A stretch of 64,000 nucleotides of DNA from Acidobacteriota bacterium (GCA_965217775.1 CBDCJH010000002.1:768001-832000), one strand, 5' to 3'. Shown: positions 30,176 to 53,357, numbered from the stretch's first letter. The notes: generated by a model not told the origin, from the sequence alone. Translations and numbers: made by a program.

Positions 30176-30844
<669 letters not shown>

Positions 30845-30875
30845 CAGGAGGGGCGATTTCCAATCCCGTCTTCCC

Positions 30876-31116
30876 CTCAGTCAAGAACTACTAAACATTA
30901 ATGTTTTCAGCAACTTACCGGGTTCTTCGCCGAATCGGTAAAGTGGTTGGCTCCCTATGTTTGGCGTCCTGAACAGGCACCAAACAGGCAGCAGCATCGG
31001 CTCTCGAAAGCTGACTCACTCTTCCTATTTTCTCTTGTTCCCCAGGTTCGGAACACTTGGTGCTTGCGCTGGGTCGTTCTTAGGCCAGCACCGCGGGGCA
31101 ACGCTCGAACCCTCAG
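30876..31116 (+). repeat. Island left-end sequence, copy 1
   Basis: About 240-bp diverged direct repeat of 32615-32846; first ~30 bp also match 57816 onward. Confidence 0.85.
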
Positions 31117-31297
31117 TATCTCGTCCCCCAGCACCTGCACCGCACTGTCGTTGGTCTCCAGTGCATCGTAGAAGTGCAGGTCAACCGGCCTTCAAAGGCC
31201 AGATCTGAAGGGGAAGTGGAGGAAGATCATTATTGGCCCCTTCTGATACCCTCTCCCACGTTTTGGTCCCCAACGAGGAGGATCGGATCTCATTCTG

Positions 31298-32608
31298 ATG
31301 GGAGAGGGAGAGGAGGAGATTGACATGGAACATCTCGCCGTGACACCCGGGGACGACCGTGGGGATGCTGGGGAGCGACAGCGAGAGCTTCTTCTTTCCT
31401 GTTTCGCCAGGAGCCGCCTTTGGATCTGTGCCTGTTGCCTCGTCCTTACGGGACTATTCGTCAGTGCTCAAGAGCCCGACGAAGAGATCCCCTACCAGCT
31501 CAAACACTACGCGTTGCAGCCCGAGATCGTGTTTCCGCATTTTCTCCCCGATACGCGCCTGGTCATCATCAACAGCGAGAGCAGCGACACGCCCCGGGCC
31601 GGAGAATACGAAGGGGCGGCCTTCGATCCGACTCCGTGGTACGAAATCTATGACCACACAGGGCGACGTCGATATGGGGGGTCTCTGTTCGTATCCGGCT
31701 ATGGCGTGCGAGATCGAGTCTTGGTGCGGCAACGAGACCTTCGCGCCCGGTCTTTTCACGGAACCTTGGTCATCAAGGGCTATACCATCGGCCTCCGAAC
31801 GTCCCTGGTCTACGAAAACCTGGGCTTCAAGATGTCCGCCCGGTCCGCGACACTGGCCCGTGCGAGCCGGATATTCGTCAGCCGGAACCCGCGCGAGAAG
31901 ACCGGGCTCGCCATCTACAACGCCTCTCCCAATCCCGCCACCATCAGCTTGGTCTTGTATTTGGACGACGGGCAGCATCCCGGCGGAGTCCCCGTGGAGG
32001 AGTACGAGGCGGTGGTCAGGACGCTTGCGCCGCGAGAAAAATTTGTGGACTACCTGTCCAACCTGCCGGAGTTCGAGCCTTACCTTGAAGCGAGAGGATC
32101 GTTCACTGGCCACGTCCTTGTTGGCTCAACGGAGGCCTTTGCGGCGATTGGCATTCTCCAAGACCCCGTCACCGGGGCGATCTCGACCGTCGAGCCCGAT
32201 GTCGTCCGGCGGCCCCTTCGCAGAGAGGTTCCGGCATGGTATGCGAGCAAATCCACGGAGCAGTATGAAATCGCCGTCACCGTCGCGACCGAACCGCACT
32301 GGATCACAGGAGAAAGATGGTGGACGAAGGCGACGATCGGAGTTCTTCGGGACTCAGAAGGGTGGAAATATCCGTATCAGGTAGAGATTGGGCTCTTGGA
32401 CTCGGCGGGGAAGAGAGTCACCTGGACCTACGTTGACACTCGCCCGTCCATCCACGATGGACATCCTGATTTGCAGCGTCACGGCGGCAAGTTTTATCCC
32501 CTCCGCCCGTTCCGTATTCTCCAGCACCATGTGGCACGGGTGCAGGACATCCGAATCGACAAGGTTTGGAGACGGCAAGGGGACCGGTGGGTCGTGATCG
32601 AGGATTGA
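31298..32608 (+). CDS. Hypothetical secreted/surface protein
   Basis: Hydrophobic signal-like segment and TGLAIYN beta-rich domain; the true start may be downstream. Confidence 0.6.
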   Translation: MGEGEEEIDMEHLAVTPGDDRGDAGERQRELLLSCFARSRLWICACCLVLTGLFVSAQEPDEEIPYQLKHYALQPEIVFPHFLPDTRLVIINSESSDTPRAGEYEGAAFDPTPWYEIYDHTGRRRYGGSLFVSGYGVRDRVLVRQRDLRARSFHGTLVIKGYTIGLRTSLVYENLGFKMSARSATLARASRIFVSRNPREKTGLAIYNASPNPATISLVLYLDDGQHPGGVPVEEYEAVVRTLAPREKFVDYLSNLPEFEPYLEARGSFTGHVLVGSTEAFAAIGILQDPVTGAISTVEPDVVRRPLRREVPAWYASKSTEQYEIAVTVATEPHWITGERWWTKATIGVLRDSEGWKYPYQVEIGLLDSAGKRVTWTYVDTRPSIHDGHPDLQRHGGKFYPLRPFRILQHHVARVQDIRIDKVWRRQGDRWVVIED

Positions 32609-32614
32609 CTGTCC

Positions 32615-32846
32615 CTCAGTCATTAACTATCGAACGTTAACTGTTTCAGTCATTTAACGGGTTCTTCGCCGGATCGGTAAAGTGGTTGACTCCCTATGTT
32701 TGACGTGCTGAACAGGCAGCAGAATCGGTTCCTGAAAGCTGACTCACTCTTCCCATTTTCTCTAGTTTCCCAGGTTCGGAACACATGGTGCTTGCGCTGC
32801 GTCGATCTTAGGCCAGCACCGCAGGGAAACACTTGAACCCTGACAG
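32615..32846 (+). repeat. Island left-end sequence, copy 2
   Basis: Direct repeat of 30876-31116. Confidence 0.85.
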
Positions 32847-33129
32847 ACTCGTGGTCCATTGACAACGGGTTCCCCGGCGCGTGTGCCGGGGGGCGGTGGG
32901 GAAGATCCGACGCTACTTCGCGCTCAAGCCGCCGAATGCCGTCGAGGCCAACCGGACCGTCTTCGTCCGTGTCGATCCGGGGCATTCGACCGACCAGGGC
33001 CTGCTCAACGCCTACGGCGGAGTGGCGGCCGCCCTGAAGCGGGCGGTCGAGGGGCAGCCAGCGGCGGAGGGTCGCTCCTTCCAGGTCGTGATTGACGGTG
33101 AACACACTGGGCAGTCGCAAAGGCTGATG

Positions 33130-33678
33130 GAGGCTCGTTTCGGCTGTGCGTCAAGGGGGTCTCGTGGCCGATCCGGGAGTGTGAATGGGACAAGCCGGGT
33201 GGATTCACAAATGGCGGTCCCGGTGATTCACAAAGACGCTTCCCCCGATCATTTTGCCTTTCATGCCGTTACGGCCCCACTGAAGCGGCCGTTCATGTTG
33301 CAACCGGTGGTCGAGGATCGCTCCGTCCAGGTCGTGATTGACGGTGAACGCACTGGGCAGTCGCAAAGGCTTATGGAGGCTCGTTTCGGCAGTGTGTCGA
33401 GGGGGTCTCGTGGCCGATCGGGGAGTGTAAGTGAGTCAGCGGGGGTCACTTACATCATGAGAGCTTTCCCCCTTACACAGGCGAATTCCCCGATCTCCCT
33501 TTCCTGCTTGTGGTTACGCCCAGATCCACGAACGGCGGCGCCCGCACGGGGAAATCGGAGGTGGACGGGAGCGACCCCCCCCTTTTTGCTGCCCGGATCG
33601 GGCACGGCGGCGCGGCGCAATTCACATTGCGCCAACGCCCCCTCGGGGAGGTCGCTCCCGTCCCAAGTATCCCTGCGG
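33130..33678 (+). repeat. oriT-like module: one partial and one complete copy in tandem
   Basis: ~120-bp tandem duplication, hexamer triplets, then the cloverleaf GACGGGAGCGACC...GGTCGCTCCCGTC. Confidence 0.7.
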
Positions 33679-34028
33679 ACTGCTTCTCTAAAGTCCATAA
33701 CCCATTCTCTATAAAAGAGTTATGAGATTTCCAACACCACTCTTCCCCCCATTCTTTCCACCGGGATGAATCGGATGTCTTTGGCCCTTCATGGCCGTGA
33801 ACGGACGTAACCGTTCGGCCAGACCGTGAATGGAGTGGACTTCCACTCCGACTAGTCGTGGCTTGATTGGTGCGGTCCGTGTTCGGAGCGGGCGTGCGGA
33901 TCAGGTTGACGAGAACCTCGGCAGTTGGCGCAGAGGATACGTCATTGCGCTGGAAGGCTCGTCCAAGATGTTGGAATGCGATGATGTTGAAACGCAAGCC
34001 GCTTCCTCTCATTCGCCTGATAGTGAAC

Positions 34029-34739
34029 ATGACTCCTGCCGAACGCGTCGATCAGCGCACTTGGTCCACGCTCGGTTGTGCCCAACAACTTCGGGTCCGT
34101 TTCGGCGAAGAAACGCTGACCGATTTGCTCGTGCTTGACATGCTTCCACACCAGCGCACCAGGGGCTTTTGGCTCTCTCCAACTACGAAGCATGCCGAGC
34201 ATCGGCACGGTGCCGACCTCCTTGTTGCCGAGCGATATCACACCGGCCGCTGGTCCCGCTTCGCGCTTCAGGCTAAAAAGCTGTACCCGAACGACAAATA
34301 CCCGATGTTGAACGGGGGGCCGAAGTACCACAGCCAATTGGACAAGCTCGACGTGTTCGCGCGGCAGCTACACGCCCTGCCCCTTTACTTGCTCTACAAC
34401 CACTCGAACACCGTACAGCCTTCCAAGCACTGGCACTGCTCGCAGCCTTTCGACGTAGGTCAACTGGGTTGCACGCTTGTCCCGAGTTGGCACATTCGGC
34501 GCATGACTTCCCGTCCGCTCCCTCGGAATTTCGACCTGGCTCACAAAGTCAGTCAGGCCAAACCATGGCGCTACGCCTTCGATTGTCCCGACGCCGAGAC
34601 ATCACTCATCCAAATGGCGTTTCGCACTCGGCATCGAGACCCGAATACACCGCCCGCCGGGCACCGTCAGTACGACTGGCCCTGTCAACCGATGAAAGCT
34701 GCTTGGCCTGAAAGGCTGTTTCGCAAATCGATGACATAG
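34029..34739 (+). CDS. DUF6615-like restriction-endonuclease-fold protein
   Basis: GEETLTDLL, E..HGAD, ALQAKKL and PLYLLYN pattern; the 3' end may be frameshifted. Confidence 0.55.
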   Translation: MTPAERVDQRTWSTLGCAQQLRVRFGEETLTDLLVLDMLPHQRTRGFWLSPTTKHAEHRHGADLLVAERYHTGRWSRFALQAKKLYPNDKYPMLNGGPKYHSQLDKLDVFARQLHALPLYLLYNHSNTVQPSKHWHCSQPFDVGQLGCTLVPSWHIRRMTSRPLPRNFDLAHKVSQAKPWRYAFDCPDAETSLIQMAFRTRHRDPNTPPAGHRQYDWPCQPMKAAWPERLFRKSMT

Positions 34740-35196
34740 CTGATGAGGGAAGATGTGGACAAAATCCGACGCGAACTGACTGGGTTCTACCGTTGCGGTG
34801 CCAATGACGGGCCAATAGAATCTTTCAGATATGATGAGAGGTGGTTGTATCCGGCGCGACTCCTCCTAGTTGATCGGTCGAAGGAACCGTAAGTGCGGTC
34901 TCGTGAGCCTCAGCCGCCAGAGCAGGACGTCAAGACCATGGATCACTTCTACCGACAGGTGAGGCTTGGCGCGCACAACCGACCGGTTTCTGTTGATAGC
35001 CACCGGCAGGTGAGCCGGATTGTTAGCAGGACAAAGCCATGGACTTCTCGACGCTGCTCGAAAACAAGGTGCTTCTGGCCGCCATTTCAGGCCTATCGGG
35101 CGTTGTCTTAACGCTGATTACCCAGCGGATTCTAGGGAAGCGCGGACTGTTCACCTACTTTGGGGGATTATATACGAAAGTGCCGAAACCTGAGCA

Positions 35197-35379
35197 TTAA
35201 CGCCGGTTCCGTGGCCGGTCTATCCATCTGATATTCACGGGCTGGACCAATGCACGGGCCAGCTCCTCGAAGTCTGCTTCCACGCGCATATCCGGTTCCA
35301 GTTCGGCCTTGGTCGGTTGGTAGGAATCCTTGACCAGTTCGATGGTGGGATGTTGGGGATTGTGTCTGGGTTTCTTCAT
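35197..35379 (-). CDS. Small IS1595 passenger protein
   Basis: 60-aa ORF translationally coupled to the upstream passenger and ending near the IR. Confidence 0.5.
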   Translation of the reverse strand: MKKPRHNPQHPTIELVKDSYQPTKAELEPDMRVEADFEELARALVQPVNIRWIDRPRNRR

Positions 35380-35881
35380 GCGGCCCTCGGCATCCTAGGT
35401 TGTTTCCCCTCAAAGTAGTCTTCCGCCGTGTAGATTTGAATCTTGGGCAGGTCCATGAAGCGTCCGGCGTTGACGGCGGCATTTCTCATGCCGTTGGTCA
35501 CTCGGTCTCGAAAGCAGGTGAAGATGCCGAGATCAGCTCCGGCCTGTCGACGTGCGCCGTTGAAGGCTTGGACGTGTCCGGGATTGGTAGAGCCGCCTTT
35601 GACCTGAGAAACGATGTCAATGAACCGGCCCTTGCGGATCGGGAGCCGTCCCACGCCGTCAATTCCGCCATCCCGTCTCTGGATTCGGTTCGGCTCCGTA
35701 CCCTCCACCAGAGCAGCAGCCCACCTCTCAAACCGGAATTTATCGATGCTGGCAAGCTCCTGAGCGTGTGTGATGGTATGGGGAAGGCCAATGTCTTGGG
35801 TGTGTTCCCAACGGATTCATCCGGGACATCCTCCCGCATGACTTCAAGGTGGTCTCCAAAGCTCAGTCGATTTTCGTTCAA
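35376..35881 (-). pseudogene. Internally deleted DNA methyltransferase/Mrr-like passenger
   Basis: N-terminus NRLSFGDHLEVMREDVPDESV (MTase start) and, in another frame, RDGGIDG...VSQVKGG (Mrr-like motif). Confidence 0.6.
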
Positions 35882-36828
35882 CCCACCAAATCCTTGTAAC
35901 GCAGCCGCTTTCCCACCATCCGGTCAGCGACCAGGGCCATTTGATCCAACGTGTCCATGCGCCTTAGGTTGTGACGTGCGGCAAACTCTCCAACGTATCG
36001 GTCGGTGTGCTGTTCCGAGAAGTGGTGAAAGGTTCCGTGGTAACTCCGCTTCAACATCGACCAGAACGATTCGGCTCCGTTGGTGTGGCAGTTGCCTTTG
36101 ACGTACTCCTGAAGAGAATGCTTGACCGTCTCGTGATTGACAAGCCGGCCGTAAGAGGTTGAATCGTCGGTGTAGATCTTGGCATCTTCTCCCACGTGCT
36201 CCAAGACGAAACGGGAGAGGGTTTCAGACTTGGTGTCAGGGACGACTCGGGCCGACACTTGGTTGGAGGGGCGATCTTTGACGGCAGCCACGGCCGTCTT
36301 TCCAACGGCTCCACGTCCCTCCAGTTTGGCGCGTTTGGCCTTCGGCATATTCTTCCGCTTTCCGCCGAGATACGCCTCGTCAGCCTCGACCGGGCCGGAG
36401 AACAGGGCCATTCCAGTCAGGTTCAGACCTTTCCGTATCCGGTGAGCAAGGTGCCAAGCCGTCTTCTGTGTTACGTCCAGGTCACGATGCAGCTTCATGG
36501 AGGAAACGCTCTTGAGGCTGGTAGTAAGGAGGTAGGTCGCAAGCAACCAAGTCTGATAGCCGAGTTTGGAGGACTGCATAACCGTCCCGACCCGGACGCT
36601 GAACCGCTTGCCGCAATCGCGGCAACGATACGGCATGGAAGGATGCTTGGCTCCGGTCTGGACGTTGGTGGAGCCGCAATGGACGCAACAGACTTCCTCC
36701 GGCCACCGCCGCTTTATGAACCATTCCTCAGCGGCTTTATCGTCGGGAAATCTCTTGAAGAATCCGCGCAGTGAAAGTCCCTCTCGGAACGCCTTTCCGG
36801 GTGCCTTGTTCCGTGTCTCGTAACTCAT
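35878..36828 (-). CDS. IS1595 family DDE transposase
   Basis: Zn ribbon CVHCGS..YRCRDC, VEADEAYLGG, IYTDD, HTNGAESFWS. Confidence 0.93.
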   Translation of the reverse strand: MSYETRNKAPGKAFREGLSLRGFFKRFPDDKAAEEWFIKRRWPEEVCCVHCGSTNVQTGAKHPSMPYRCRDCGKRFSVRVGTVMQSSKLGYQTWLLATYLLTTSLKSVSSMKLHRDLDVTQKTAWHLAHRIRKGLNLTGMALFSGPVEADEAYLGGKRKNMPKAKRAKLEGRGAVGKTAVAAVKDRPSNQVSARVVPDTKSETLSRFVLEHVGEDAKIYTDDSTSYGRLVNHETVKHSLQEYVKGNCHTNGAESFWSMLKRSYHGTFHHFSEQHTDRYVGEFAARHNLRRMDTLDQMALVADRMVGKRLRYKDLVG

Positions 36829-37608
36829 TGCATCCTCCTGACTTACAAGACATATTCTATAGGAAAGTACCGGGATTGTCAACCCCTACGGGAAACCTTT
36901 TCGGCACTTTCGTATATAATCCCCCTACTTTGTGTGGCACAACCGTGTCGGCGTATCAGCCGACGACGCGGTATTCGGGACCGTAGGCGTCACTTGGAAC
37001 AGCAACGTAGTGCCAAACCTGTACTCATCGACAGTTGAGCTGAGAAACGAAAGTCTCGCTGACTACCAGAACGTCGTCGTGCGCGTGTTCTCGAACGACA
37101 CGCGCCTCTTGTCAGAACGCGCGGACTTGATGGGAACGACCCGCACCCTGGAATGGAGCGAGGAGTTCTCCCGTCGGTTGGCAGTCCAGCCAGGAACCCA
37201 GCCGACGGCGGGCCAGATGGTTCTATACGGGCGCCAGCGCGAATACGCCGTGCCGACGATGAATCGTGGTCAGATCGTGCGTCTGACGTTTCTGAATGCG
37301 CCTGACGGTGAGGCTCAGCCCACGATTTGGCTCGACATCGTTCATCCCGGTGTGAAGACCCGGTTCCGAGTGCCACATCAGCAGTTTCTTGGGACGCCGC
37401 AGCCCATCGCCGCGCTCATCGGCGCGGCTCTGGGTGTTCCCTTCCTGCTCGTAGTCGTCGCCTTGACCGACGTGGCCTGGGCCGCTGGGGTTCTGTGCTT
37501 ACTCTATGGGGTCTGCGTCGTCTTCCCGGGCGCGTACTTTATCAAGGCGTGGCGGGGGATCAGAGAGTTGGTCGGTGGATGATAGGGGGCACCGGCGCCG
37601 AAGGGCGC

Positions 37609-37690: not shown

Positions 37691-37704
37691 CTCTCGGTGA
37701 ACCG

Positions 37705-38701: not shown

Positions 38702-38744
38702 CGAAATCAAGAGCACGAGCGGTGGCCGGCGTGAGGATGAAGCA

Positions 38745-40816: not shown

Positions 40817-41911
40817 TCATTTGTTGGATTTTCTGCGATTGCACTGCTTGCACAGCATTTGACAGTTCTGTGCGATTGTCTTGCCGCCCTCGGCCCAAGG
40901 GGTGATGTGGTCGGCCTCCATATACGACATCTCAAACTTCTTCGCACATGACTTGCAAATGCCGTTTTGACTCTCGAACGCCTTCTGCTTCATGGCGGGG
41001 GAGAAGGCCCGGATGTTGAGATGTTTCTCCTCGCCGGTGAGGAGATACGGGTAGATGCCCGCCTTTTTCGTCACATCGTCGTCGATCATCAGGCGGACAA
41101 TGTCGTCCTCAAGTCCTTCGGGATCCAGGCTCTCGTCTTTGAGTTGCCCGTAAAGCCCGCCCCAATCCACGCCTTTCATTGGCTTGCGGTAGTTCGGGAA
41201 AACCGCTTCCACCCGGTTGATTACCGCTTGGAAGTGACTCCACAAGGCGGTTGCGGTCTTGTCGTGCTGATGCGTGGCCATGTACTCTTCGACCGTCTGG
41301 CCCTCGTCCTTGATCCATTGGATCGCGATTTCGAGGTACTCCTGGCGATCCGCCCTCCCTTTCACATACCGACTTCCGATTGCATAAGCCGGGCAGGCGG
41401 CCCCCTTCCGGCTGAAATGCCGCTTTGCGTCGGACACCCACGGGCCAGCATAGACCGCATTCCGCAGCTCTTGGCTGGTCAGCCTTTCGCCCGCGATGTT
41501 GATGATCCTGAACCAAGCCAGCTTCTCGCTGGCACTCCCCTCGCAGAAATAAACCTGCAACGGGTAATTGAGGATCCGCTCCTGCTCGTCGTCTTGCAGG
41601 TTGTGGAAATACCGCCCGTCAAGGGAGTAGTCGCCTTTCACGTACTGCGCGGCTGAGATCGTGCGCTGCTGGCCGTCTATGACTTCATACGTTCCGTCTT
41701 GGCGCACGGCCCAATACATCACATTGAGCGGAAAGCCCTTGTTGATCGTCTCGATCACCGCATTGCGCTGCTTGTCCTTATAGACAAACTCGCGCTGAAA
41801 AGGCGGGCGGATGTCGAGTTTGCCGCCATAGCCGCGCACCCCGCCTTCGCCGTCGTCATGGTAGTCCTCCACAAGGTCGCGGACTGTGATTTTCTTCAGA
41901 TCAATTTTCAT
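40817..41911 (-). CDS. DUF262 (GmrSD-like) plus HNH endonuclease
   Basis: PPFQREFVY, IDGQQR, F..IN; C-terminal CKSC..EADHI.PW..GG....NCQMLCKQCN. Confidence 0.88.
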   Translation of the reverse strand: MKIDLKKITVRDLVEDYHDDGEGGVRGYGGKLDIRPPFQREFVYKDKQRNAVIETINKGFPLNVMYWAVRQDGTYEVIDGQQRTISAAQYVKGDYSLDGRYFHNLQDDEQERILNYPLQVYFCEGSASEKLAWFRIINIAGERLTSQELRNAVYAGPWVSDAKRHFSRKGAACPAYAIGSRYVKGRADRQEYLEIAIQWIKDEGQTVEEYMATHQHDKTATALWSHFQAVINRVEAVFPNYRKPMKGVDWGGLYGQLKDESLDPEGLEDDIVRLMIDDDVTKKAGIYPYLLTGEEKHLNIRAFSPAMKQKAFESQNGICKSCAKKFEMSYMEADHITPWAEGGKTIAQNCQMLCKQCNRRKSNK

Positions 41912-42434
41912 TGCGGCAGCACTCTCTTAATCAGAAGGCGAACATAAGTGGGTCTGAACTCGCCCCCAACCTTTATCACACCCCTTCTATTCAGATTGCC
42001 TGCGTTGGGCACATCTGCCACCGAGTATTCTTTCGTCTTAAGATCGGAGTTGTTGTCCCTGTCTGTTATCCCCATGACTTCGAACTGCTCCGGGTTGTGT
42101 TTGTCCAGAAATGTTATCGGCACCCCCATCGCCCCGTCCCAATCCATCGGGATTTCGGCGGTCTTGTCCACATTGATCGCGTCGTAGTTGTCGTAGGCCG
42201 GGTATTCCTCCGGCGAGTACCGCTTGTAGAGGATCAATTCCTCGTGGCGCATGGCATGGTCGAGATTGGTGAACCAGCCGACGTTTCTGAATTTGACCAG
42301 TCCGGTCGATTCGTCGAAGTACGACTTGCTTTCGTAGCGTTCAACGTCCGCCACCTTGAAATACGCGTTTCCATTGCTGAAGCCATATCCAAACCACACC
42401 CGGTTCTCTTTGATTAGCGGAAAAATCTCCTTAT

Positions 42435-44430
42435 CCCAGATTATTCATCACGCAAACATAAAATGGGAAAGCGTTCCCGCCATGTCGAGTCGGATCAGAG
42501 GGTTACGGGATACCCACAGAAAAAGGTCGAGAGCCGCCGTGGGTGAAACGCTATCGTGGTTTTCGACTCCGCCTTAATCTTTGGGTTCAGAGGGGTCCGA
42601 AACCCTCGCATTTCCAAGGTTTTCTCCCCTTCCATGGGCGGCAAAAAGAGGCGGCGTGCCCGTCATTTGTGGTATGATTATGGTGCTAAGAAACAACAAC
42701 AAAGAACGGAGCACGCCATGCCTGAGACGATACCGCAGATCCGGCCCTCATTCAACCGATCCCTCCGCCTCGAGACCCGCCCCGAGTTGCTCAGTGCGGA
42801 CACGGGAGCCCTGGTGCAACGGGAGATGATGGATCGTAGCGGCCTCATCGATTGGTTGACCGAGCGGTTGCACGATCGGCGACACCCGAGTTCGATCCGC
42901 TATCCGCTGTCGGATCTGCTGCGGACTCGACTCCTGCTGCTGGGGCAGGGCTGGCGCGACCAGTCCGACGCCGACCGCCTGCGTCAGGATCCGAGCTTGC
43001 GGGTGGCGAGCCAGACCCGTCGGGGCACGGCGGCCTTGGAGGAGGGCCAGGGGCTGGCATCGCAGCCGACCTTGTCCCGACTGCTGGACACGCTCAGCCG
43101 GGAGGAGAACGTTCCGGTCCTGCACCAGGCGGTGACGGAGCTGGCGTGCCGTCGGATCGAGATGATCGAAGGTCGGCGGCGAAAACGGGGGAAAAAGACC
43201 CCACGGAAGAAGAGACGGAAAAAGACGATGGTCCTGGACGTGGACGGTCTCCCGGTGGAGGTCCATGGGCATCCCCCGGGAAGCGAATGGAACGGATACT
43301 ATCGCCAGCGGATGTACCACGGGTTGGTGGCGAGTTGTGCCGAGACGGGGGACCTGATCGACGGGGAGATTTTTCCGGGAGCCAGCTACTTGGGGAAGAA
43401 GGCGCTGAAGTTGACGCTCCGGGTGGTGGACCGCTGTCGGGGGCGTCTGTGCGGCTCGATGATCGTTCGGATGGATGCGGGGTTCCCGGAGCCGGGGCTG
43501 CTGAAGGGGCTGGAATCGAGAAGCGTGCCCTATATCGCTCGAATCCGCAAGAATGAGGTCCTGAATCGGATGGCGAAGCCCTACTTGACCCAACCGGCGG
43601 GGCGATCCCCGGATGCACCACCGAGGCTCTGGTTCCATGAGCTGACCTATCAGGCGGAGAGTTGGGATCGGGCGCGCCGGGTGGTGCTGGTGGTGCGGGA
43701 GCGACCGGGGGAGTTGTATCCGGATCATTTCTGGTTGCTGACGAGCCTGAGCCGGAAGCGTTATGAGGCGGAAGCGTTGCTGGCAAAGTATCGCAAGCGG
43801 GGGAAGGCGGAAGGGCACATGGGGGAGTTGATGGACGTGTTCGATCCGGCCTTGTCCTCCGCGAGCCGGCCCAAGACGCACTATCGGGGCAAACCGCTGA
43901 AGCCGGGAGCCAAGCCGGAAGCGACGACGGAGGCCGGGGTTCGACCCCACAACGAAGTCTTGTTCCTGCTGAATCTGCTGGGGTACGAGATCCTGCACCT
44001 GGGTCGGGTGCTGATGGAGCAGGCGACGCGTCGGGGCTGGAGTCTGCGTCGTTTTCGCGAACGGGTGTTGCGAGTGGCGTCTCGGGCGCTGCGTCAGGGG
44101 AGGCGATTGATTTTCGTCATCAGTCAAGGGGCGACGGACTGGAAGCGGTTGTGGAAGAGCCTGGCGCGGGTGTCCTGGGCGCCGGGATAGTGGACGGAGG
44201 AGGAATCGGGCCCGTGGAAGGGACCGAAACGGTGGGAATTTCTCACCGGAAAGTCAACCTGTCGGCGGATGACGGTCCCCCTGGCCGGTAAACGGTTTAT
44301 GAGTGGTTCAATCGTCCTGTTTTTGAGCCGATTCAGTCGAATCGACAGAGGTTCGAGAGAAACCGGGCTCCGACCGCCAGAAAACGCCGGGCTGGAAGCC
44401 CTTATCAACATGTCCCATGAATAATCTGGG
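42435..44430 (+). mobile_element. IS1380-family insertion sequence
   Basis: IR CCCAGATTATTCAT/ATGAATAATCTGGG; 5-bp TSD CTTAT. Confidence 0.92.
42718..44190 (+). CDS. IS1380 family transposase
   Basis: LASQPTLSRL, LDVD..VHG, VRMDAGF, YRKRGKAE. Confidence 0.9.
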   Translation: MPETIPQIRPSFNRSLRLETRPELLSADTGALVQREMMDRSGLIDWLTERLHDRRHPSSIRYPLSDLLRTRLLLLGQGWRDQSDADRLRQDPSLRVASQTRRGTAALEEGQGLASQPTLSRLLDTLSREENVPVLHQAVTELACRRIEMIEGRRRKRGKKTPRKKRRKKTMVLDVDGLPVEVHGHPPGSEWNGYYRQRMYHGLVASCAETGDLIDGEIFPGASYLGKKALKLTLRVVDRCRGRLCGSMIVRMDAGFPEPGLLKGLESRSVPYIARIRKNEVLNRMAKPYLTQPAGRSPDAPPRLWFHELTYQAESWDRARRVVLVVRERPGELYPDHFWLLTSLSRKRYEAEALLAKYRKRGKAEGHMGELMDVFDPALSSASRPKTHYRGKPLKPGAKPEATTEAGVRPHNEVLFLLNLLGYEILHLGRVLMEQATRRGWSLRRFRERVLRVASRALRQGRRLIFVISQGATDWKRLWKSLARVSWAPG

Positions 44431-45147
44431 CTTATAGGTGACGGCGTTCTTGCTCCCGATAATCAGGAACTTCTTGCCGTACTCCTCCAGTTGGGCGACG
44501 TATTCGCGGAACAGCGAAAACGGCGGGTTGGTCACCACGATGTCCGCCTGCTTCAAAAGCTCGATGCATTCCGGGCTGCGGAAATCCCCGTCCCCTTCAA
44601 ACGCATGGACCCCAATATCCTCTACGTCGGGTACTCTGCCGCCCTTAGAGTTCCCCTTGTATTCGAGCCATATCGCCCGCTCCACATCGTGACGGCTGAA
44701 TAGGTCGCGGTCCTGGTTCTTGTAGCACGCAGTGATGAGCTTCTTCAGGCCCAGGCGCTCGAAGTTGTACGAGAAGTAATGGAAGAAGTTGGAGACGCGG
44801 GGATCGTCGCAATTGCAATACACGACTTTGCCCCGGAAATGTCTGGTGTAGTGGCGCAGCTCGTTCTCGATGTCGGAAAGCTGCGTGTAGAACTCGTCGT
44901 TCTTCTGCCGCTTGGCTTTTCGTAAGTTTTCATTCAGAGACATGGGTTTGCTCCCTAACCAAGCCTGTTATCGGTGATCAGTCCCCGATATTTGAGCCGC
45001 TCATGCTCGTTCCCCAACCTCGGCACTTCGCTAGATTATTTCCTTCTCGTAAACCGCGTCCTGCCAGTCATCCGCGAATTCGGCGGCGCGGGCACGGACT
45101 TCGTTCCAAGGCAGGCGCATTAGCCTGAGCGACGGCGCGAGCCTCGA

Positions 45148-45471: not shown

Positions 45472-45480
45472 TCCCTTCAG

Positions 45481-45753: not shown

Positions 45754-46179
45754 AGACCACGATGCAACTATTGTAACGCGAAACGCTACGCGCTGCGAAG
45801 CCTCGGTCACTGGCCAACGTTACGCATACGCCCCTCGGCTACGTGTTCCTCCCTGAGTGGCCTGAGGAACGCCTACCGGTCCCGGACCGTGGCTGGAGTA
45901 AGGCGAAACAGGCCGAACCCCAATCTGCTTGACACACTCTTCACGATGAAACTGCGACAAGAGTGGCTGCGAGAGTCCCTCGTAGAGAACCACGCGGAAC
46001 CGTTGGCGGTTGTTGGAAACGTTCTTCTTGCCGATGATCCGGTCGCTGTGGGTCAGGAGATGCGCCGGCCGCGGAGCCTCTCCACCGCCTGCTTCCTGAG
46101 GGTCTCCAGCCGCTGCTCGTGGATGTCGGGGGCGTTCATGCGTCCCATCTTGCCCGTCACGGGTGTCATTTTTAGCCTT

Positions 46180-46445
46180 CCCGCCAGGGATAAATGGGAT
46201 GGGAGCGACCCCCCCAGGGGGCGTTGCGCAAATGTGAATTGCGCAACGCCCCCGCGCCCGCTCCGGGCAGCAAAAAGGGGGGGTCGCTCCCGTCCACGTC
46301 CCCATTCCCCGAGCGGGCACCGCCGGTCCGAGGAATGGGACGTAAACATAGGAAAGACAAGGAGATCGGGGAAATCTCGTGTGTAAGTTGGCGAACTCTC
46401 ATAGTGTAAGTCACCCCCTTTGTCTCACTTACACTCCTGGATCGA
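46180..46445 (-). repeat. oriT-like module, inverted copy
   Basis: Reverse complement of the 33422-33678 module with the same cloverleaf and GTAAGT/ACTTAC triplet. Confidence 0.75.
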
Positions 46446-46482
46446 CACGGGTACCGCACTCTGAAACCTGAGCGAGACGGAG

Positions 46483-47454: not shown

Positions 47455-47952
47455 GTGAATACATGGTGGCTTGCCATTGATCGGAATCAGGGGAATGCTT
47501 CTTACGAAAAGTTGAAAAATCGGAAAGTGGTAGCACAAGGATGGCCGAAACTGGGAGATCTGAGAACACTCTGCACTCTAGTTGAAAAGGGGGATAGAAA
47601 CGCATTCACTCACAAGGTGAGGGCCCGGCATTTGCTTGTGTACGGCGAAGAGTACAGTAGTCAAGCCTCTCGTATCATGTGGGACTTGTTGAGCTTGAGA
47701 TCCGGTGATCTTGTTGTGGGGATTGAAGGAGTCGCTGTAAAAGGCATTTGCCGACTGGAGCAAGAAGGATGGGAAAGCTATAAGCATGACTCCACATACG
47801 AGTATGCCCAAACTGTCGGTTTCCCGGTCGAGTGGGTTGATTGGGAGTTTGATTTTACGCCACGTGCCCCGAACCAAGGCGTGCCAGGAATCAGACAGCT
47901 TCAAAGCGAAAGGGAGAAAGTAATTTCTGTTTGGGAAAACCGAGAAATCTAG
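47455..47952 (+). CDS. Stand-alone PUA/EVE-like domain protein (resembles N-termini of Mrr/McrB-type enzymes)
   Basis: VAQGWPKLGDL, GDLVV..G..VKGI, VEW pattern; strong RBS; low GC. Confidence 0.45.
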   Translation: MNTWWLAIDRNQGNASYEKLKNRKVVAQGWPKLGDLRTLCTLVEKGDRNAFTHKVRARHLLVYGEEYSSQASRIMWDLLSLRSGDLVVGIEGVAVKGICRLEQEGWESYKHDSTYEYAQTVGFPVEWVDWEFDFTPRAPNQGVPGIRQLQSEREKVISVWENREI

Positions 47953-48057
47953 TCGATAGGCTCCTAAATTCCTTTTCTACAGGAGACAAGAGGGCATCCA
48001 CACCTCGGTCATTCAGCCAACAACGGTTACCGCGCCTTGCAGGCGAGAGGTCATTCG

Positions 48058-48358
48058 TGACTCGTTTCGGCAGTGCGTCAAGGGGGTCATGTGGCCGATC
48101 CGGGAGTGTGAATGGGACAAGCCGGGTGGATTCACAAAAAGCGGTCCCGGTGATTCACAAAGACGCTTCCCCCGATCTCCCTTTCCTGCTTGTGGTTACG
48201 GCCAGATCCGCGGACGCCGGCGCCCGCACGGGGAAATCGGAGGTGGACGGGAGCGACCCCCCCTTTTTGCTGCCCGTATCGGGCACGGGGGCGTTGCGCA
48301 ATTCACATTTGCGCAACACCCCCTGGGGGGGTCGCTCCCGTCTCATTGATCCCTGCGG
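48058..48358 (+). repeat. oriT-like module, complete copy
   Basis: GTGAAT/ATTCAC triplet plus cloverleaf. Confidence 0.75.
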
Positions 48359-48483
48359 GAAGGCCCCTGCGAAGATTCCTGAAGACTTGTTGTGGCCGTC
48401 CAAGGCGTCCATGCTCCCCACGTGATACAATGTGATCTATGTATGACCACAGGCTATAAGTGCCCCTGTGGTACGCTTGAAGG

Positions 48484-48905
48484 ATGAAGGGTTTTCGCGT
48501 CCGCTTGGACGACGACCTGGACCGAGTCCTGGAATTTCTGGAGTCGGAACGCTATGTGAACGTCGGCGCCTGGGTCCGCTCTCTGCTACGCGCGGGCCTG
48601 ACCCAGCAACGTTGGGTGCGGCTCCGGGGGTGGCGCCCCTCCTGGAAACTCCAACTACGAGATCTCCGCCGCTTCGGAGTTGGAGTCCCTACAAGCTCGA
48701 AGATGGCTCCTGGGGATCTTCCTACCTTGGCGATGCCGTCAAGCTCCCCGAGGACCCGGCCAGGTGCTCCATCGAGATTACGCCCCGGCGGGGAGACTCC
48801 TGGACCGCCACCGTGTTAGACGTCATCGAGCGCCGGGAGATTTCGTCCTGGTCCGCGACTCGGGGAAACCATCCGACGCTGCGTGATTTATCGGTTGGGA
48901 GGTAA
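48484..48905 (+). pseudogene. RHH-like small protein, apparently frameshifted
   Basis: MKGFRVRLDDDLDRVLEFL...VGAWVRSLLRAGL beta-alpha-alpha pattern; a plausible continuation lies in another frame. Confidence 0.45.
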
Positions 48906-48930
48906 ACTGGGCTGAATTGGAGGAGAACCC

Positions 48931-49167
48931 ATGGGAGTCATGGTAAGCGAGATTTACGACGCGTTGATCGATGCGGGCGCGACTGAAGCCAAGGCACGGG
49001 CGGCGGCGGAGGCCATTCCAATCAGTGACCAGTTAGCCACCAAACAGGACATCATCGAACTCAAAACCGACATCGCCAGCCTGAAAGCAGATTCCAAGAT
49101 CATCAAGTATGTCTTCGCTCCTGCTGTCATCTTCCTGCTCCTCAAGATCGCATTCTTCTCCTCCTGA
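48931..49167 (+). CDS. Small coiled-coil protein with C-terminal TM (DUF1640-like)
   Basis: YDALIDAGA.E..A, LATKQDI..LK; RBS GGAGGAG. Confidence 0.7.
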   Translation: MGVMVSEIYDALIDAGATEAKARAAAEAIPISDQLATKQDIIELKTDIASLKADSKIIKYVFAPAVIFLLLKIAFFSS

Positions 49168-49186
49168 TCAGATGGGGACAACCATT

Positions 49187-50083
49187 ATGAGCACGAAATC
49201 CTCTCAGGGGGAGCGACCATGGCCCTCCACTCAGCAAATGTTATTGGATCACCTGCAACGAATTGTGGAGGGAGTGACCCTCTTTGAAGACGATTCCGGT
49301 GAGCATTGGTGGTTCGGGTTTGGGGACTGCCTAATTTCGAAGACTTGGTGCATAGACGAAGATGATCATGAGTTTAACAAACGAGTAATGGATAACGCCG
49401 CCATCACCATGTTCTTGTCCAACCTAGGTGTTGAAGCCAGAGATCGCCCTAGCGGCCCTGTTATCCGAAAGACGAATCCTGACCTCCTGAAAACTCTTAC
49501 CGAGATTTTTTCCGATAGACCATCACCTCAGGAATTTCTACGGCAGAGGGTTCCTGAGGTCGGCGTCGGATTAGAGGAAGCGTATGCATTCGAGATGTTG
49601 AACAAGCTGGATCAGGTTGTGGGCCGCAGCAAACAAAAGGCGGTCCAAGAAATTCTGCTTCTGGAGGATGTTCCGGAGGGGGTGGATGACTATATGGCCG
49701 AAGCTGCGGCCTGCTTCCGTTACGGGTTTGACAAAGCGTGCTTGGCAGTCTGCCGAACAGCGCTAGAGGAAATGCTCAAAAAGCGGATTGAATGCGATCA
49801 TGGCAAACGTGCCATCCAGACCTATGATAAACGTAGAGAGCGTTGGGTCGATAAAAATCTCTACACTCTCATCGAGGAAGCACACAAGCAGTACGGGCCT
49901 AAGCAGCAATGGTCTAAGTATCTGAACGACCAGTTGGCTGGGGCTGCCCATCGAATTCGAAGATGGGGGAATGGAGCAGTTCACGGCTCTAGCACAATCC
50001 CCCGTGATGAAGTTAAGTCCAAAGCACAAAGGGCTCTCTTGCACTCCAAACAGATACTGGAACATCTCTGGTCATCGGTCTGA
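49187..50083 (+). CDS. DUF4145 (HEPN-like) domain protein
   Basis: EAAACF..G...A...CRTALE and IRRWGNGAVH. Confidence 0.7.
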   Translation: MSTKSSQGERPWPSTQQMLLDHLQRIVEGVTLFEDDSGEHWWFGFGDCLISKTWCIDEDDHEFNKRVMDNAAITMFLSNLGVEARDRPSGPVIRKTNPDLLKTLTEIFSDRPSPQEFLRQRVPEVGVGLEEAYAFEMLNKLDQVVGRSKQKAVQEILLLEDVPEGVDDYMAEAAACFRYGFDKACLAVCRTALEEMLKKRIECDHGKRAIQTYDKRRERWVDKNLYTLIEEAHKQYGPKQQWSKYLNDQLAGAAHRIRRWGNGAVHGSSTIPRDEVKSKAQRALLHSKQILEHLWSSV

Positions 50084-50346
50084 CTTCGGTCCTATGAGAA
50101 GGGCATAGTCCCCTTTATTGGGCTCTGATCCGATCCCAGAGCGGTCCTCCCTTCCACTCTTCCACGGCGCGCCGGGTGCATCTCTGGACCCGAGCTTCGC
50201 GACCGGAGACGACCTTCCCCAGCGGAAGCTTCGCCGCCCGCCGCTTCCGAATCTCAATCTAGGTTCCAGCAGAGAGTAGCGTGCTAATATGCTAGCGTGC
50301 GCTCCCTTCAGTGGAGGCCAAACGGTTATCAAGGAAAGAGCGAGTA

Positions 50347-51300
50347 ATGAGGAACCTCTGTGCCATCGCAATCGCCGTTTTGTTCAATGGCGTGCTGCTG
50401 GCCCAGGACGTGACGGAATACTACGTCCCGAATCCTCACTTCCCCGACACTTACGGAGGGGAGCATCATGTCCTCATCACGTCCATGCGAAACACCCTCG
50501 ACGAACCATTGGTGGTCGCCGTGACACAGGGTGAGCACTGCCAAGATTTGGAGTTGGAGGATTCTGGGCTCACCTTTGAAATCGAGGCCGGAGACAAACT
50601 GGACAGTCGGCGGGAGAGTACAGATGGAGACGCTCCGGCCTGGACGAAAGTTTCTCATCCGCCAGTAGATGGGGGAAAGCGTCTCCTGAAGATTTCACAG
50701 TTCTGGAGGCATGTGGACAAGTGGGGCCGGACCATATCCTCTGCCCCCGTGACGTTGCACCACGAAGTATTTGCTGAATGCCCGGAGCCAAAGACCTTCC
50801 ACGGGTTGCGGATCGAACCGGAAAACCGTTGCTCGCCGTATGACCCGGAAGACTACAGCTACCCGGCTTCAATCAAGGATCAAGTCGCCAAGCAGCAGGG
50901 GGGAGCTTTCTGTCCCTACGATTACCAGTGCTTCGCCAGCACCGACGAAATGAGCCTCGATCATATGGTTTCCCGGGCCGAAGCACACGACTCGGGTCTG
51001 TGTCGTGCCAGTGCAGAGGCCAAGAAGCAATTCGCCTCTGATCTGTCTAATCTGACGCTGATACCGAAGGAGTTCAATCCTTACTGGGAATCCGAGAAGC
51101 TGGACAAGGATGCTGCGGAGTGGGTGCCCGGGACCAATGAGTGCTGGTTTGCAGGGACGGTGATTGAGGTGAAGCGCAAATACAGGCTGTCTGTCGATCA
51201 GGCCGAAGCGGACGCCCTTGAGGAAGTTCTCGCCGGTTGCGCCGCATCCGAAATTGGGAGGATGCACGGACCGGACTGGCCCGAATGTGTTGGGGAATGA
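50347..51300 (+). CDS. Secreted protein with DUF1524/HNH-like nuclease domain
   Basis: Signal peptide; LDHMVSRAEAHDSG, FASDLSNL, KDAAEWVP, VKRKYRLSVD. Confidence 0.7.
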   Translation: MRNLCAIAIAVLFNGVLLAQDVTEYYVPNPHFPDTYGGEHHVLITSMRNTLDEPLVVAVTQGEHCQDLELEDSGLTFEIEAGDKLDSRRESTDGDAPAWTKVSHPPVDGGKRLLKISQFWRHVDKWGRTISSAPVTLHHEVFAECPEPKTFHGLRIEPENRCSPYDPEDYSYPASIKDQVAKQQGGAFCPYDYQCFASTDEMSLDHMVSRAEAHDSGLCRASAEAKKQFASDLSNLTLIPKEFNPYWESEKLDKDAAEWVPGTNECWFAGTVIEVKRKYRLSVDQAEADALEEVLAGCAASEIGRMHGPDWPECVGE

Positions 51301-51884
51301 TGGGCTCCGTCAGGGGTCTAGGCAAGGGGAACTGCGTAGCTGAGTGCCCCAATGAACTCTCTCCATTGGGGTTCGTCCATCAGTCTTCCTCAAGGTTATC
51401 CGATATCGCCAACAGAGAGTGCGCAATGGCGCGTGCCGGGGCTCGGGACAAGTTGGCGTACTGGGGAATGCCAGACTGATATTCGATCCGGTGGCTTGGA
51501 AGTCCGATCCTGAATTCTATCGGGTGCTCGGGGCGTCGCTGGCTCCTATGAAAACCGGACAGGCGACGTTCCTAGTGTTGACCTGGAAGGTTCGGCTTTT
51601 TTTACTTCTCACGGTGCTCTCTCCATCGGTTCCGTTGCCTTCGCCCTGATGTATTTGCTGCCGACGGTAGCGCTCTGGGCGCTCCTCGTCATCCATGTTC
51701 TCCTCGATGTGCCGCTTGAAGGCCCTGTACCCCCAGCCGAAGCCTGCCAGCAAAAGGGACCTAACGGGCACTCAGCTACGCAGGACCCCCCATTTTATGG
51801 TTCGCCTGTAACCGATGCGCTGATTGCCCGGGAAGCCGGGAAGCTGGGGATATCAGACTTCGAGCCGGCCCGTCGCACTGATCC

Positions 51885-52085
51885 AAGTGCCTAACCGGAG
51901 GCCCTTCAGTGTTGCCGCCGCGGCCCAGTACCTGAGCAATGCCATCGGCACGATTCGCAACCTGGCCGATTTGAACATCATCAAAGCCAGAGTCGAACTC
52001 GACACCGCCGGCCGGCTACGGCGGGTCTTCGCTCAGGAGGACTTGGACGACGATGTCGATTCTCTGGAGCCGTGGTACGATTCGC
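51885..52085 (+). pseudogene. Excisionase-like HTH upstream of the integrase, boundaries uncertain
   Basis: FSVAAAAQYLSNAIGTIRNLAD...RRVFAQEDLD; the ORF runs on without a normal stop. Confidence 0.55.
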
Positions 52086-52124
52086 CCCACGGCGAAGAAC
52101 CCGGATCCAGAAAGGAGGAGATGC

Positions 52125-53210
52125 ATGGGCATCTACAAGGTGAAGGATCGCCGGGGGAGGAGACGATACGTCTTCAGCAAGTACTGGCCGAACGGATCCG
52201 GTCGGCTCCGAATGTACGCCCCCAACTACCGGAGCGCACAGGCGCTCCAAACTCGGGTGGAGTCCAGCATCCTGGACGGCACCTGGAAGCAACTCAAGGA
52301 GGAACTCGCCGGTGGGAAACGCACCATCTGGACGGTGCACAGTTTCTACCAGCGTTTTCTCGAGGAGTATTGCAAACCTCGCATGCGCTCCTGGCGGAGC
52401 TATGAGGGTTCGTTCAAGAGCCTCAACGCCATGCTGGGGAACATTCCCCTGAAGGAGTTCCAACGCAAGGACCTGCACCGCTACGTCGCCCAGAGGAAGA
52501 AGCAAGTCAAATCGGCCACGGTGAACCGCGCCATCGCCGCCATCAGCAAGCTGTTTTCCTACGCGCTGGAGTGTGGGGAGATCGACACGCACCCGCTGGT
52601 GCGGTTTTCCAAACTAAAGGAGCCCAAGAAGGTCTTCCGGCCATTGACGGTTCAGCAGTTCCGCGACCTGGTCGAGGCGGTGGACAACCCTTACCTGCAA
52701 GCCATGATCGCAGTGATCGGCGAGACGGGGATACGCAAGGGAGAAGCGTTGTCGCTCACTTGGAAACGGGTGGACCTGCGTCGCGAATTGCTCTGGGTGG
52801 AACTCACCAAGAACGACGAGACGAGGGAGATACCGCTGTCGAAGTACGCCACCGGATATCTGGTCGGGCTGGTTCGTTATCTGAACACTCCATACGTCTT
52901 CGTCAACAGCCGGACGGGGACGAGATGGGTGAATCTCGACAAGCCGCTACGTCGCGCTGCCGAGAAGGTGGGGTTGAAGGTCGGATTTCACGATCTGAGG
53001 CGCTTCCGGTGCAGCCATTGGCTGATGCAGGGTGTGGACGTGAGGACGGTGCAGAAGCTGATGGGACACTCGGCGATCAGCACGACGATGCGGTATGCGG
53101 GGTACGTCAGTTCGCATGCGCTGGCAAGCATTCGGGAGGCACAGGCTAACGAAGACTCACAAACACAACAGGCAACAAACAGGCAACGGGCAGGAAGCAA
53201 GGGGCAATGA
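52125..53210 (+). CDS. Tyrosine recombinase/integrase, catalytic residues intact
   Basis: TGIRKGE, TKN, FHDLRR, LMGH, TMRY; RBS AAGGAGG. Confidence 0.93.
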   Translation: MGIYKVKDRRGRRRYVFSKYWPNGSGRLRMYAPNYRSAQALQTRVESSILDGTWKQLKEELAGGKRTIWTVHSFYQRFLEEYCKPRMRSWRSYEGSFKSLNAMLGNIPLKEFQRKDLHRYVAQRKKQVKSATVNRAIAAISKLFSYALECGEIDTHPLVRFSKLKEPKKVFRPLTVQQFRDLVEAVDNPYLQAMIAVIGETGIRKGEALSLTWKRVDLRRELLWVELTKNDETREIPLSKYATGYLVGLVRYLNTPYVFVNSRTGTRWVNLDKPLRRAAEKVGLKVGFHDLRRFRCSHWLMQGVDVRTVQKLMGHSAISTTMRYAGYVSSHALASIREAQANEDSQTQQATNRQRAGSKGQ

Positions 53211-53253
53211 TTCGAGGGAATACTTGGGATAACCTGTTGAAAATAAAGGATCA

Positions 53254-53293
53254 ATCCTGTAGCTCAGTTGGACCGAGCAACGGATTTCCAATC
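53254..53293 (+). other. 5' tRNA half (Arg-like) forming the island right att end
   Basis: ATCCTGTAGCTCAGTTGGACCGAGCAACGGA resembles acceptor, D-arm and anticodon stem; no T-arm follows. Confidence 0.75.
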
Positions 53294-53357
53294 GCCCATT
53301 CTTCAGCGCCAAATTGTCACTCTGGAGTTCGGCGGTTGGAAACCCCCGATCCAATCC

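Follow-up and report, generated by a model that had tools for sequence, protein, structure and literature searches.

The stretch of DNA analysed here, called the window below, comprises 64,000 nucleotides of an Acidobacteriota bacterium (GCA_965217775.1, CBDCJH010000002.1:768001-832000) whose genome, G000, is 6.43 Mb in size. It carries a genomic island with a tyrosine integrase gene, situated within a repetitive extragenic palindrome (REP) between msrA, coding for peptide methionine sulfoxide reductase (30176-30844, plus strand; PF01625, E=3e-59), and a gene for an HpcH/HpaI aldolase (53358-54194, minus strand; PF03328, E=6.7e-24), which form the left and the right host flank, respectively, and are convergent. 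The island is bordered by exact copies of an 11-bp sequence, GATTTCCAATC, in direct orientation (30855-30865 and 53283-53293, both on the plus strand), without a third copy in the window, and it is 22,428 bp long when measured from repeat copy to repeat copy. In the whole genome GATTTCCAATC occurs 41 times, mostly within REPs.

The left copy of the repeat is the crossover core of attL, with the 7-bp spacer TTTCCAA, and the right copy is that of attR. Outward of the left copy stands GGAGGGGC (30847-30854, plus strand), the 5' strand of a split REP palindrome which forms the B arm of attL; intact REPs and the empty sites described below have these letters ahead of the core as well. Outward of the right copy the sequence reads GCCCATTC...GGCGGTTGGAAACCCCCGATCC, a segment (53294-53352, plus strand) comprising the 3' strand of the split REP, a spacer and the inverted second REP of a doublet, mutated here to GGCGGTTGGAAACCCCCGATCC. 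On the island side, the right repeat is directly preceded by ...CCTGTAGCTCAGTTGGACCGAGCAACG and the left one directly followed by CCGTCTTCCCCTCAGTCAAGAACTA....

The msrA flank was searched for in 40 relatives and is present in all eight congeners (8/8). Three of them, G006 (with a flank 98% identical to that of the window), G007 and G003, have msrA followed by one uninterrupted REP doublet and then by the aldolase gene, with GATTTCCAATC as a single copy; the right outer segment of the window is collinear with these doublets and with paralogous ones. The element at the empty site, GGAGGGGCGATTTCCAATCGCCCATTCTTCAGCGCCAAATTGTCACTCTGGAGTTCGGCGGTTGGAAACCGCCGCTCC, is exactly the outer left half of the window joined to its outer right half, which excludes chance and leaves precise insertion, or precise loss in the relatives. 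A reading made from the DNA of the window before this analysis (the sequence-only reading) had placed GATTTCCAATC at both island ends and had claimed that removal of the island rebuilds a REP doublet between convergent msrA and aldolase genes; both claims are borne out, and the lack of a contiguous REP in relatives, named beforehand as a possible refutation, is not what the three congeners display. Two further genomes, G004 and G001, have a different palindrome, GGGGGGACATTCCTGTCCCCC, at the msrA-aldolase site. In G002 (L005) and G005 (L004) unrelated DNA is inserted at the REP of this site after its first bases, and the site may have been hit by other elements too.

REP palindromes and the tRNA relic of the att end

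A genuine repeat family, with a short palindrome and a high copy number as is typical of REPs, forms the target, and its representative in the window lies between convergent genes. The 19-mer GGGCGATTTCCAATCGCCC is present in 20 exact copies in the genome, and near-identical 85-nt doublets are found elsewhere, e.g. at C2:990532, 4615861, 4616372, and 4625065. A census of perfect hairpins with a 5-bp stem and 7 nt between the strands gave 103 with TTTCCAG, 85 with TTTCCAA, 27 with TTTCTAG, and 14 with CTTCCAG, where chance would give ca. 0.8 per loop; nearly all of them have GGCGA or GGCGG stems, and the REP-related hairpins of the genome number about 230. The exact 17-mer GGCGATTTCCAATCGCC occurs in 79, 43, 27, 58, and 7 copies in congeners, the reversed control giving none. 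A REPIN-type inverted doublet, consisting of GGGCGATTTCCAATCGCCC, a spacer of ca. 35 nt and the inverted GGCGGTTGGAAACCGCC, is found at the empty site and at no fewer than four paralogous loci, i.e. at least four. Three open reading frames (ORFs) with a Y1-transposase domain (PF01797), candidates for REP-associated tyrosine transposases (RAYTs), are present in the genome, two of them no more than a few kb from REP copies.

Folding of the intact doublet, taken as a single strand of DNA, gives two hairpins (-22.1 kcal/mol, z=-3.3). The fold of a REP is an 8-bp stem with a 3-nt loop, GGGCGATT-TCC-AATCGCCC, because TT can pair with AA, and the seven nucleotides taken for a loop in the sequence-only reading are therefore better read as a 7-bp crossover spacer; of its description of REP hairpins with 7-nt loops, the REP family stands and the loop does not. 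The spacer is nearly palindromic, its direction being given by the central three bases. The palindromes also account for two false tRNA-Gly(tcc) genes of 89-95 nt called by ARAGORN in G000 (C2:117489-117577 and 4661454-4661548), both of which are REP doublets.

The right end of the island contains, directly before the attR core, the remains of a tRNA-Arg(UCU) gene, namely of its 5' half, with a decayed acceptor strand, a D-arm and the 5' strand of the anticodon stem (53252-53282, plus strand), in which the tRNA-like piece GTAGCTCAGTTGGAC...ACGGA begins at 53259. No T-arm follows this piece, ARAGORN finds no tRNA in the window, and a search of the whole window against Rfam gave no match. Among the 61 tRNAs of the host, tRNA-Arg(UCU) (C2:3954257-3954331), which is intact and unoccupied, matches the piece best: the gene reads CCCGTAGCTCAGCTGGACAGAGCAACGGACTTCTAATCCGT and the right end of the island joined to its left end reads CCTGTAGCTCAGTTGGACCGAGCAACGGATTTCCAATCCCGT, with ca. 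5 of 41 positions different and one indel. The loop letters had suggested tRNA-Gly(UCC) as the source, a candidate that was rejected, the genuine tRNA-Gly(UCC) being unlike the relic. The left arm, too, starts with CCGT, a remnant of the 3' strand of the anticodon stem. In copies residing in REPs the D-arm decays without compensating changes (e.g. GATC...GAGC and TCTC...GGGC), and the piece looks in this respect like a relic and not like a working RNA.

Two relatives of the island still occupy the tRNA gene. One, in G003, lies inside tRNA-Arg(UCU), where the right end together with the 3' half of the tRNA constitutes an intact tRNA-Arg(UCU) (L019/L109, called by ARAGORN) and an identical copy of the tRNA 5' half precedes the left end (L048); the second tRNA-Arg(UCU) resident is L114. 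Given these residents, the ancestral attP would have comprised the tRNA 5' half with the whole anticodon stem-loop, the crossover taking place in the anticodon loop. The match to tRNA-Arg(UCU) and the exact copy of its 5' half in two relatives agree with the earlier claim that the circle junction rebuilds a tRNA 5' half, and these sequence comparisons support the descent of the att end from tRNA-Arg(UCU). The three cores may be aligned as ACGGA-CTTCTAA-TCCGT in the tRNA, ACGGA-TTTCCAA-TCCCGT in attP, and GGGCGA-TTTCCAA-TCGCCC in the REP attB. Since GACTTCTAATC of the tRNA agrees with GATTTCCAATC of the REP at 9 of 11 positions and short inverted arms surround both, a jump from tRNA to REP is easy to picture, and the change probably ran in that direction.

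The integrase family across the genus

The integrase gene (52053-53210, plus strand) is an intact ORF of 385 aa, whose product matches PF00589 (93.8 bits, with 27.1 as the cut-off; E=1.3e-26) and has a Xer-like catalytic domain, with the XerC-like 4a8e, XerA 5hxy, and XerD 1a0p as relatives in the PDB. Tyrosine recombinases share the catalytic motif R...H-x-x-R...H/W...Y; by eye it is assigned to R228, H313, R316, H339, and Y348, which are invariant in 15 aligned copies of the integrase. This is the sole recombinase linked to the conserved ends of the family, and no mobilising enzyme of the DDE or DEDD type is associated with them.

The left arm of the island (P' arm; 30866-31113, plus strand) is conserved, with seven other copies in G000 (80-87% identity) and, over the whole genus, 32 unique ones. 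In G000, a BLAST search with both arms found eight left and three right arms; the REP 5' half precedes seven of the eight left arms and the REP 3' half follows all three right arms (3/3). The sole left arm devoid of a REP half is an internal copy in the island itself, at 32607-32855. Among the matches listed, the arms in relatives are confined to the source genus, with at least 20 right and 21 left arms (the latter also a minimum) in G004, at least 15 right and at least 21 left arms in G005, and fewer in other genomes.

A protein-based scan for the integrase, with one genome per species, yielded 54 loci, all in metagenome-assembled genomes (MAGs) of uncultured Acidobacteriota of the source group except for two bins labelled otherwise. 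The right end could be read in 42 of them (35 by BLAST, 6 and 1 partial by eye), while one locus ends before the junction, two are interrupted by other DNA and nine integrase fragments were left out. Two of the 42 readable attR junctions lie in tRNA-Arg(UCU) and 40 in the C-rich (3') strand of a G/C-rich palindrome; ARAGORN detects tRNAs at L109 and L114 and none at the 40 palindrome junctions. On the left side, a REP half precedes 28 of 29 junctions and the tRNA 5' half one. The spacers include TTTCCAA, TTTCTAG, CTTCCAG, TTTCCTA, CTTTTAG, CTAACAG, and CTGTTAG, as well as others, each with the matching type of stem (TCGCC, CCCCC or GTCCCC), and the palindrome with CTAACAG is itself repeated, in 8 copies in G004 and 17 in G001. 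For eight insertions in other genomes the orthologous alignment of G000 starts at most 30 nt from the junction; the island is absent from all eight G000 sites (0/8), and five of them have an uninterrupted palindrome.

G004 has 26 integrase loci, of which 24 are open for at least 350 codons, with element lengths of ca. 2.5-25 kb if the nearest ends on the same strand are paired, a pairing that is tentative. Four pairs of integrases in this genome are 100% identical over 1.0-1.1 kb, and in the one pair in which they were compared (L080/L081) the flanks differ, which indicates recent movement of copies. These multicopy insertions support the view of the sequence-only reading that the family uses abundant REPs as intergenic landing sites, and the 40 palindrome junctions answer its concern that essentially all other members might sit in tRNA genes.

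In a midpoint-rooted tree of 36 integrases the clades follow the REP class, CTAACAG and CTGTTAG, spacers that are reverse complements of each other, being intermixed. L086 (CTGTTAG) and L088 (CTAACAG) differ in the spacer and in the tRNA-like arm, their integrase genes being 99.7% identical, and comparison of the two points to an exchange of arms among elements and to an integrase protein that does not read the central bases.

Both arms contain tandem copies of AACAGGCA, two in the left arm (30972-30990, plus strand, starting at 30972 and 30983) and two in the right (53167-53185, plus strand, starting at 53167 and 53178), 11 bp apart in each case, the latter pair inside the 3' end of the integrase ORF. 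In a degenerate form, A[AC]C[AC]GGCA, the motif stands at ca. -117/-106 from the core in all 39 unique right ends (twice in 26 of them) and at +105/+116 in 30 of 32 left ends (twice in 21 of the 32), with constant orientation and 11-bp spacing and a background frequency of 0.019 per 220 nt. This conservation of position, orientation and spacing on both arms fits their earlier description as resembling arm-type sites, as far as conservation can tell, and the AACAGGCA pairs would be the sites bound by the N-terminal domain of the integrase. That domain would lie in the ca. 95 residues ahead of the SAM-like domain; residues 1-95 have no match in Pfam. In a low-confidence AlphaFold model based on 15 close copies (mean pLDDT, the predicted local distance difference test score, 59), they form three strands (26-31, 37-44, and 51-56) and a helix (62-75), with a local pLDDT of 41-60, an arrangement compatible with an arm-binding domain.

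Upstream of the integrase gene and overlapping its start is a degenerate, excisionase-like ORF with a helix-turn-helix (HTH) motif (51866-52078, plus strand; HTH_17, E=0.17). Its counterpart in the tRNA-resident L109 scores better (HTH_17, E=7.4e-6, 26.6 bits with a cut-off of 27). The score with the 'excise' model is E=0.022. The small ORF is conserved in some copies only, and its frame is broken in several; it may encode, or have encoded, an excisionase.

A cluster of decayed family members is located at C2:2751717-2779076 in G000. A remnant of 1.9 kb retains part of an integrase gene, a copy of 4.5 kb, with GACTTCCAGTC as its boundary sequence, has an integrase gene with a frameshift, and one more left arm stands alone; tandem accretion is suggested by the repetition of the outer flanks.

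Insertion into REPs and its alternatives

The island was very probably set into the centre of the REP palindrome by site-specific recombination carried out by a tyrosine integrase, as a member of a tRNA-derived family that has spread on REPs in the manner of a transposon; the reaction would be catalysed by the integrase encoded at its right end. In the proposed course of events the attP core would go back to the anticodon stem-loop of tRNA-Arg(UCU), with its 7-bp spacer changed so as to match the centres of REPs, which would offer the ancestral target geometry, i.e. a 7-bp spacer with a short inverted arm on each side. An exchange of strands in the TTTCCAA common to both (the identity extending over GATTTCCAATC) would split the REP and duplicate the core at both ends, and lineages would later have separated, with spacers matching different REP classes. 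Since a genome offers such targets between genes by the tens to hundreds, the family could multiply like a transposon.

The integrase is possibly, though doubtfully, loose in its arm specificity, accepting any short G/C-rich inverted repeat 7 bp apart, with the site set mainly by the spacer of attP. Retargeting would then need a change of just the three central bases of the spacer, as the L088/L086 pair hints.

Integron integrases acting on attC and the XerCD reaction of the CTX phage use folded hairpins. The present family is like them in that its enzyme is a tyrosine recombinase and its targets are imperfect palindromes, conserved in shape more than in sequence, GGGCGA, GGGGGAC, and GGGGGT stems all being used; the two strong hairpins formed by the intact doublet and a partial match of the integrase to the integron-integrase model TIGR02249 point the same way. 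It is nevertheless unlikely that the integrase reads REPs as extruded or single-stranded hairpins, as the integron integrase does attC, instead of double-stranded inverted repeats. The match to TIGR02249 (68.1 bits) is far below the cut-off of 265 and covers just the shared catalytic motif, and there is no cassette array. Moreover, the two-arm layout of attP, with arm-type repeats ca. 110 bp on each side, is typical of double-strand reactions of the lambda type, and the core is duplicated with both att halves retained, as in double-strand exchange, no bottom-strand-only signature being visible.

A second alternative, in which REPs are the ancestral target and a later capture, e.g. by an imprecise excision that took along a tRNA 5' half, gave rise to the tRNA-Arg residents and the tRNA-like piece alike, must be considered distinctly improbable. 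It would agree with the position of the tRNA-resident L109, which is not basal in the midpoint-rooted tree and forms a long branch inside one clade, and with the rarity of islands carrying the 5' part of a tRNA gene, of which there are 159 in Islander as compared with 3760 carrying the 3' part (PMC4383910). Against it, the D-arm-like piece is found at the same distance from the core in every REP-resident copy examined and decays in all of them without compensation, and the remnant of the anticodon-stem 3' strand begins the left arm as well; a capture would have to predate all the lineages, which amounts to a tRNA-linked ancestor anyway. An arrival by homologous recombination or RAYT-mediated events between REPs, with the integrase and the tRNA-like piece as passengers, is very improbable, for, abundant as REPs are and known as substrates of recombination (PMC1525189), and even with three Y1_Tnp-domain ORFs in the genome, all copies have the junction at one and the same base of the palindrome, its inner sides never differ from the two conserved arms, one of which is next to the integrase, the duplicated core follows an attP-type logic with the spacer of each lineage fitting its REP class, and homologous exchange would leave whole REPs at both ends and not complementary halves.

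Several points weigh against insertion by the integrase and the tRNA-derived history as set out above. The right-arm repeats lie within the last codons of the integrase gene, where coding alone could conserve them; the structure model is poor, so that an arm-binding domain is not established; and the integrase tree, midpoint-rooted, has no outgroup, the relic being the sole basis for the direction from tRNA to REP. A clear palindrome is missing from three of the eight orthologous sites of G000. Contamination of the genome, which is a MAG, is estimated at 7.5%, and neither an excised circle nor an attP junction was seen in the contigs of four metagenome runs matched to positions 52000-61000 of the window, which fall short of spanning the island. 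The copy in the window also looks partly decayed, with two insertion sequences (IS), a second left arm in its interior and a score of E=0.17 for the excisionase-like ORF, and it is possibly no longer mobile.

Lambda-type heterobivalent integrases work with arm-type sites and an excisionase. The window's island has comparable paired 8-bp repeats with 11-bp spacing at ca. 105-117 bp from the core on both arms, ca. 95 extra N-terminal residues, predicted to form three strands and a helix, and a small HTH ORF upstream of int; it differs in that this ORF is degenerate in many family copies, and the confidence of the model is low.

Among islands that target tRNA genes, class 'A' of Islander is the nearest parallel (PMC4383910): the integrase is near one end, attP carries a tRNA segment, the crossover lies in the 7-nt anticodon loop between the strands of its symmetric stem, and L109 and L114 sit in tRNA-Arg(UCU) and regenerate the gene. 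Unlike that class, the window's island and 40 of its 42 relatives are outside tRNA genes, and the tRNA piece they keep is a relic in decay; of the tRNA, the island has the 5' half, a minority layout (159/3919), and the copy number of the family rises to 24-26 per genome, the islands of all kinds in Islander averaging ca. 3 per island-bearing genome. The intact tRNA accompanied by a displaced fragment, by which Islander defines an island, is missing from the window, which has no tRNA and is flanked by REP halves, and is found at L109/L019 with L048 and at L114; a tRNA segment in attP ending at the anticodon loop is present in the window (53252-53282).

As regards the target, Tobes and Pareja (2006; PMC1525189) described REP targeting in five IS families, among them IS1397 and ISKpn1 of the IS3 family, IS621, ISPa11, ISPpu9, and ISPpu10 of the IS110 family, and others; transposases are named there, and the word 'tyrosine' is absent from the text. 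These IS share with the present family the use of abundant extragenic palindromes as harmless multicopy landing sites, insertion inside the palindrome and multiple copies, whereas their enzymes are DDE/DEDD transposases, in place of which a tyrosine recombinase with attP/attB logic and a cargo of 2.4 kb (in the mini-island described below) to 22 kb are found here. Clades of closely related integrases with different attB sites are known as well (e.g. PMC10111431), unlike which the switch seen here led to a repeated non-coding palindrome and was followed by an expansion in copy number. A tyrosine-integrase island targeting REPs was not found in the literature, supplements and subscription journals not being covered. 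The mechanism is that of the known tRNA-targeting tyrosine-integrase islands, and the target is that of the REP-seeking IS.

Island content, a mini-island and significance

The island is composite, because it contains an internal second left arm (32607-32855, plus strand), 82.5% identical to 30874-31113 and lacking a REP half before it. A 436-aa ORF located between the two left arms (31298-32608, plus strand) has no family match and is either cargo or a remnant of an outer element. Both IS transposases within the island belong to separate multicopy elements. One of these is an IS1595-family insertion sequence (35159-36926, minus strand; transposase at 35878-36882, PF12762, E=1.8e-38), which has four other copies of 98-99.9% identity, and the other (42424-44444; transposase at 42556-44190 on the plus strand, DDE_Tnp_1_4, E=2e-66), an IS with more than 10 copies, splits a gene for an EcoRI-type adenine methyltransferase (41908-44943, minus strand) into halves at 41908-42399 and 44308-44943 (PF13651, E=9e-47 and 1e-76). 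Next to the methyltransferase is a type II restriction endonuclease-like gene (40817-41911, minus strand) with GmrSD_N and HNH domains (PADLOC REase_II, E=8.3e-140; Pfam matches). The endonuclease-like ORF (364 aa) is open beside an IS-split methyltransferase (40817-44943), and either the nuclease is inactive or the host is protected by another methylase.

The remaining content of the island comprises a PDC-S52 candidate, a DinB-like gene and several ORFs without matches; most of the remaining island ORFs had no match in Pfam and PADLOC, and no conjugation or phage structural genes were detected in the island. A sequence of 300-500 bp is present three times in it (33026-33680, 46175-46450, and 48023-48504) and also adjoins other left arms, at C2:2751863-2752378 and 1550989-1551316; this recurring sequence has no ORF with a family match.

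The same window contains a second member of the family, a 2.4-kb mini-island devoid of an integrase gene (57795-60241, plus strand), whose left arm follows GACTGTTAGTC and whose tRNA-like relic on the right precedes GACTGTCAGTC, its site being a REP of the GGGGGGAC type. It consists of one ORF with Schlafen/AlbA_2 and HATPase_c_4 domains (58236-60017) and of a repeat of ca. 165 bp resembling a miniature inverted-repeat transposable element (MITE; 57916-58081), which has terminal inverted repeats TTAACAGCCCGTGG... and 267 BLAST matches in the genome; the depth of contigs from the four metagenome runs over the MITE is ca. 100 times that of the neighbouring DNA. G007 also has the mini-island, which is missing at the orthologous place in G006 and G003; G006, having no copy of the targeted REP, does not represent an exact empty site. 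Contigs of all four runs (4/4) skip from 57781 to 60251 and from 57756 to 60259, with sides of 20-48 letters in which letters are replaced, so that these joints are ambiguous; other contig joints, e.g. from 57784 to 53324, are REP-to-REP ambiguities.

Tyrosine integrases are the textbook example of single-site enzymes, and tRNA genes are their classic targets. The family described here illustrates, with the intermediates still extant, how an integrase can give up a single, essential gene as its target for a neutral look-alike that occurs many times over. The consequences are copy numbers like those of transposons, one genome having at least 24 integrase genes that are open, and a division into lineages, each fitting a REP subfamily. 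REPs gain a further role by this, as landing pads for islands that carry cargo, here a restriction-modification system and candidate defence genes, and the family provides a natural series of attP/attB pairs for the study or engineering of changes in integrase specificity. If the site is indeed set by the spacer of attP, the enzyme would be a naturally occurring tyrosine integrase that serves many sites and is simple to redirect, and it would drive the defence-gene islands and REP-bordered patchworks of these genomes.

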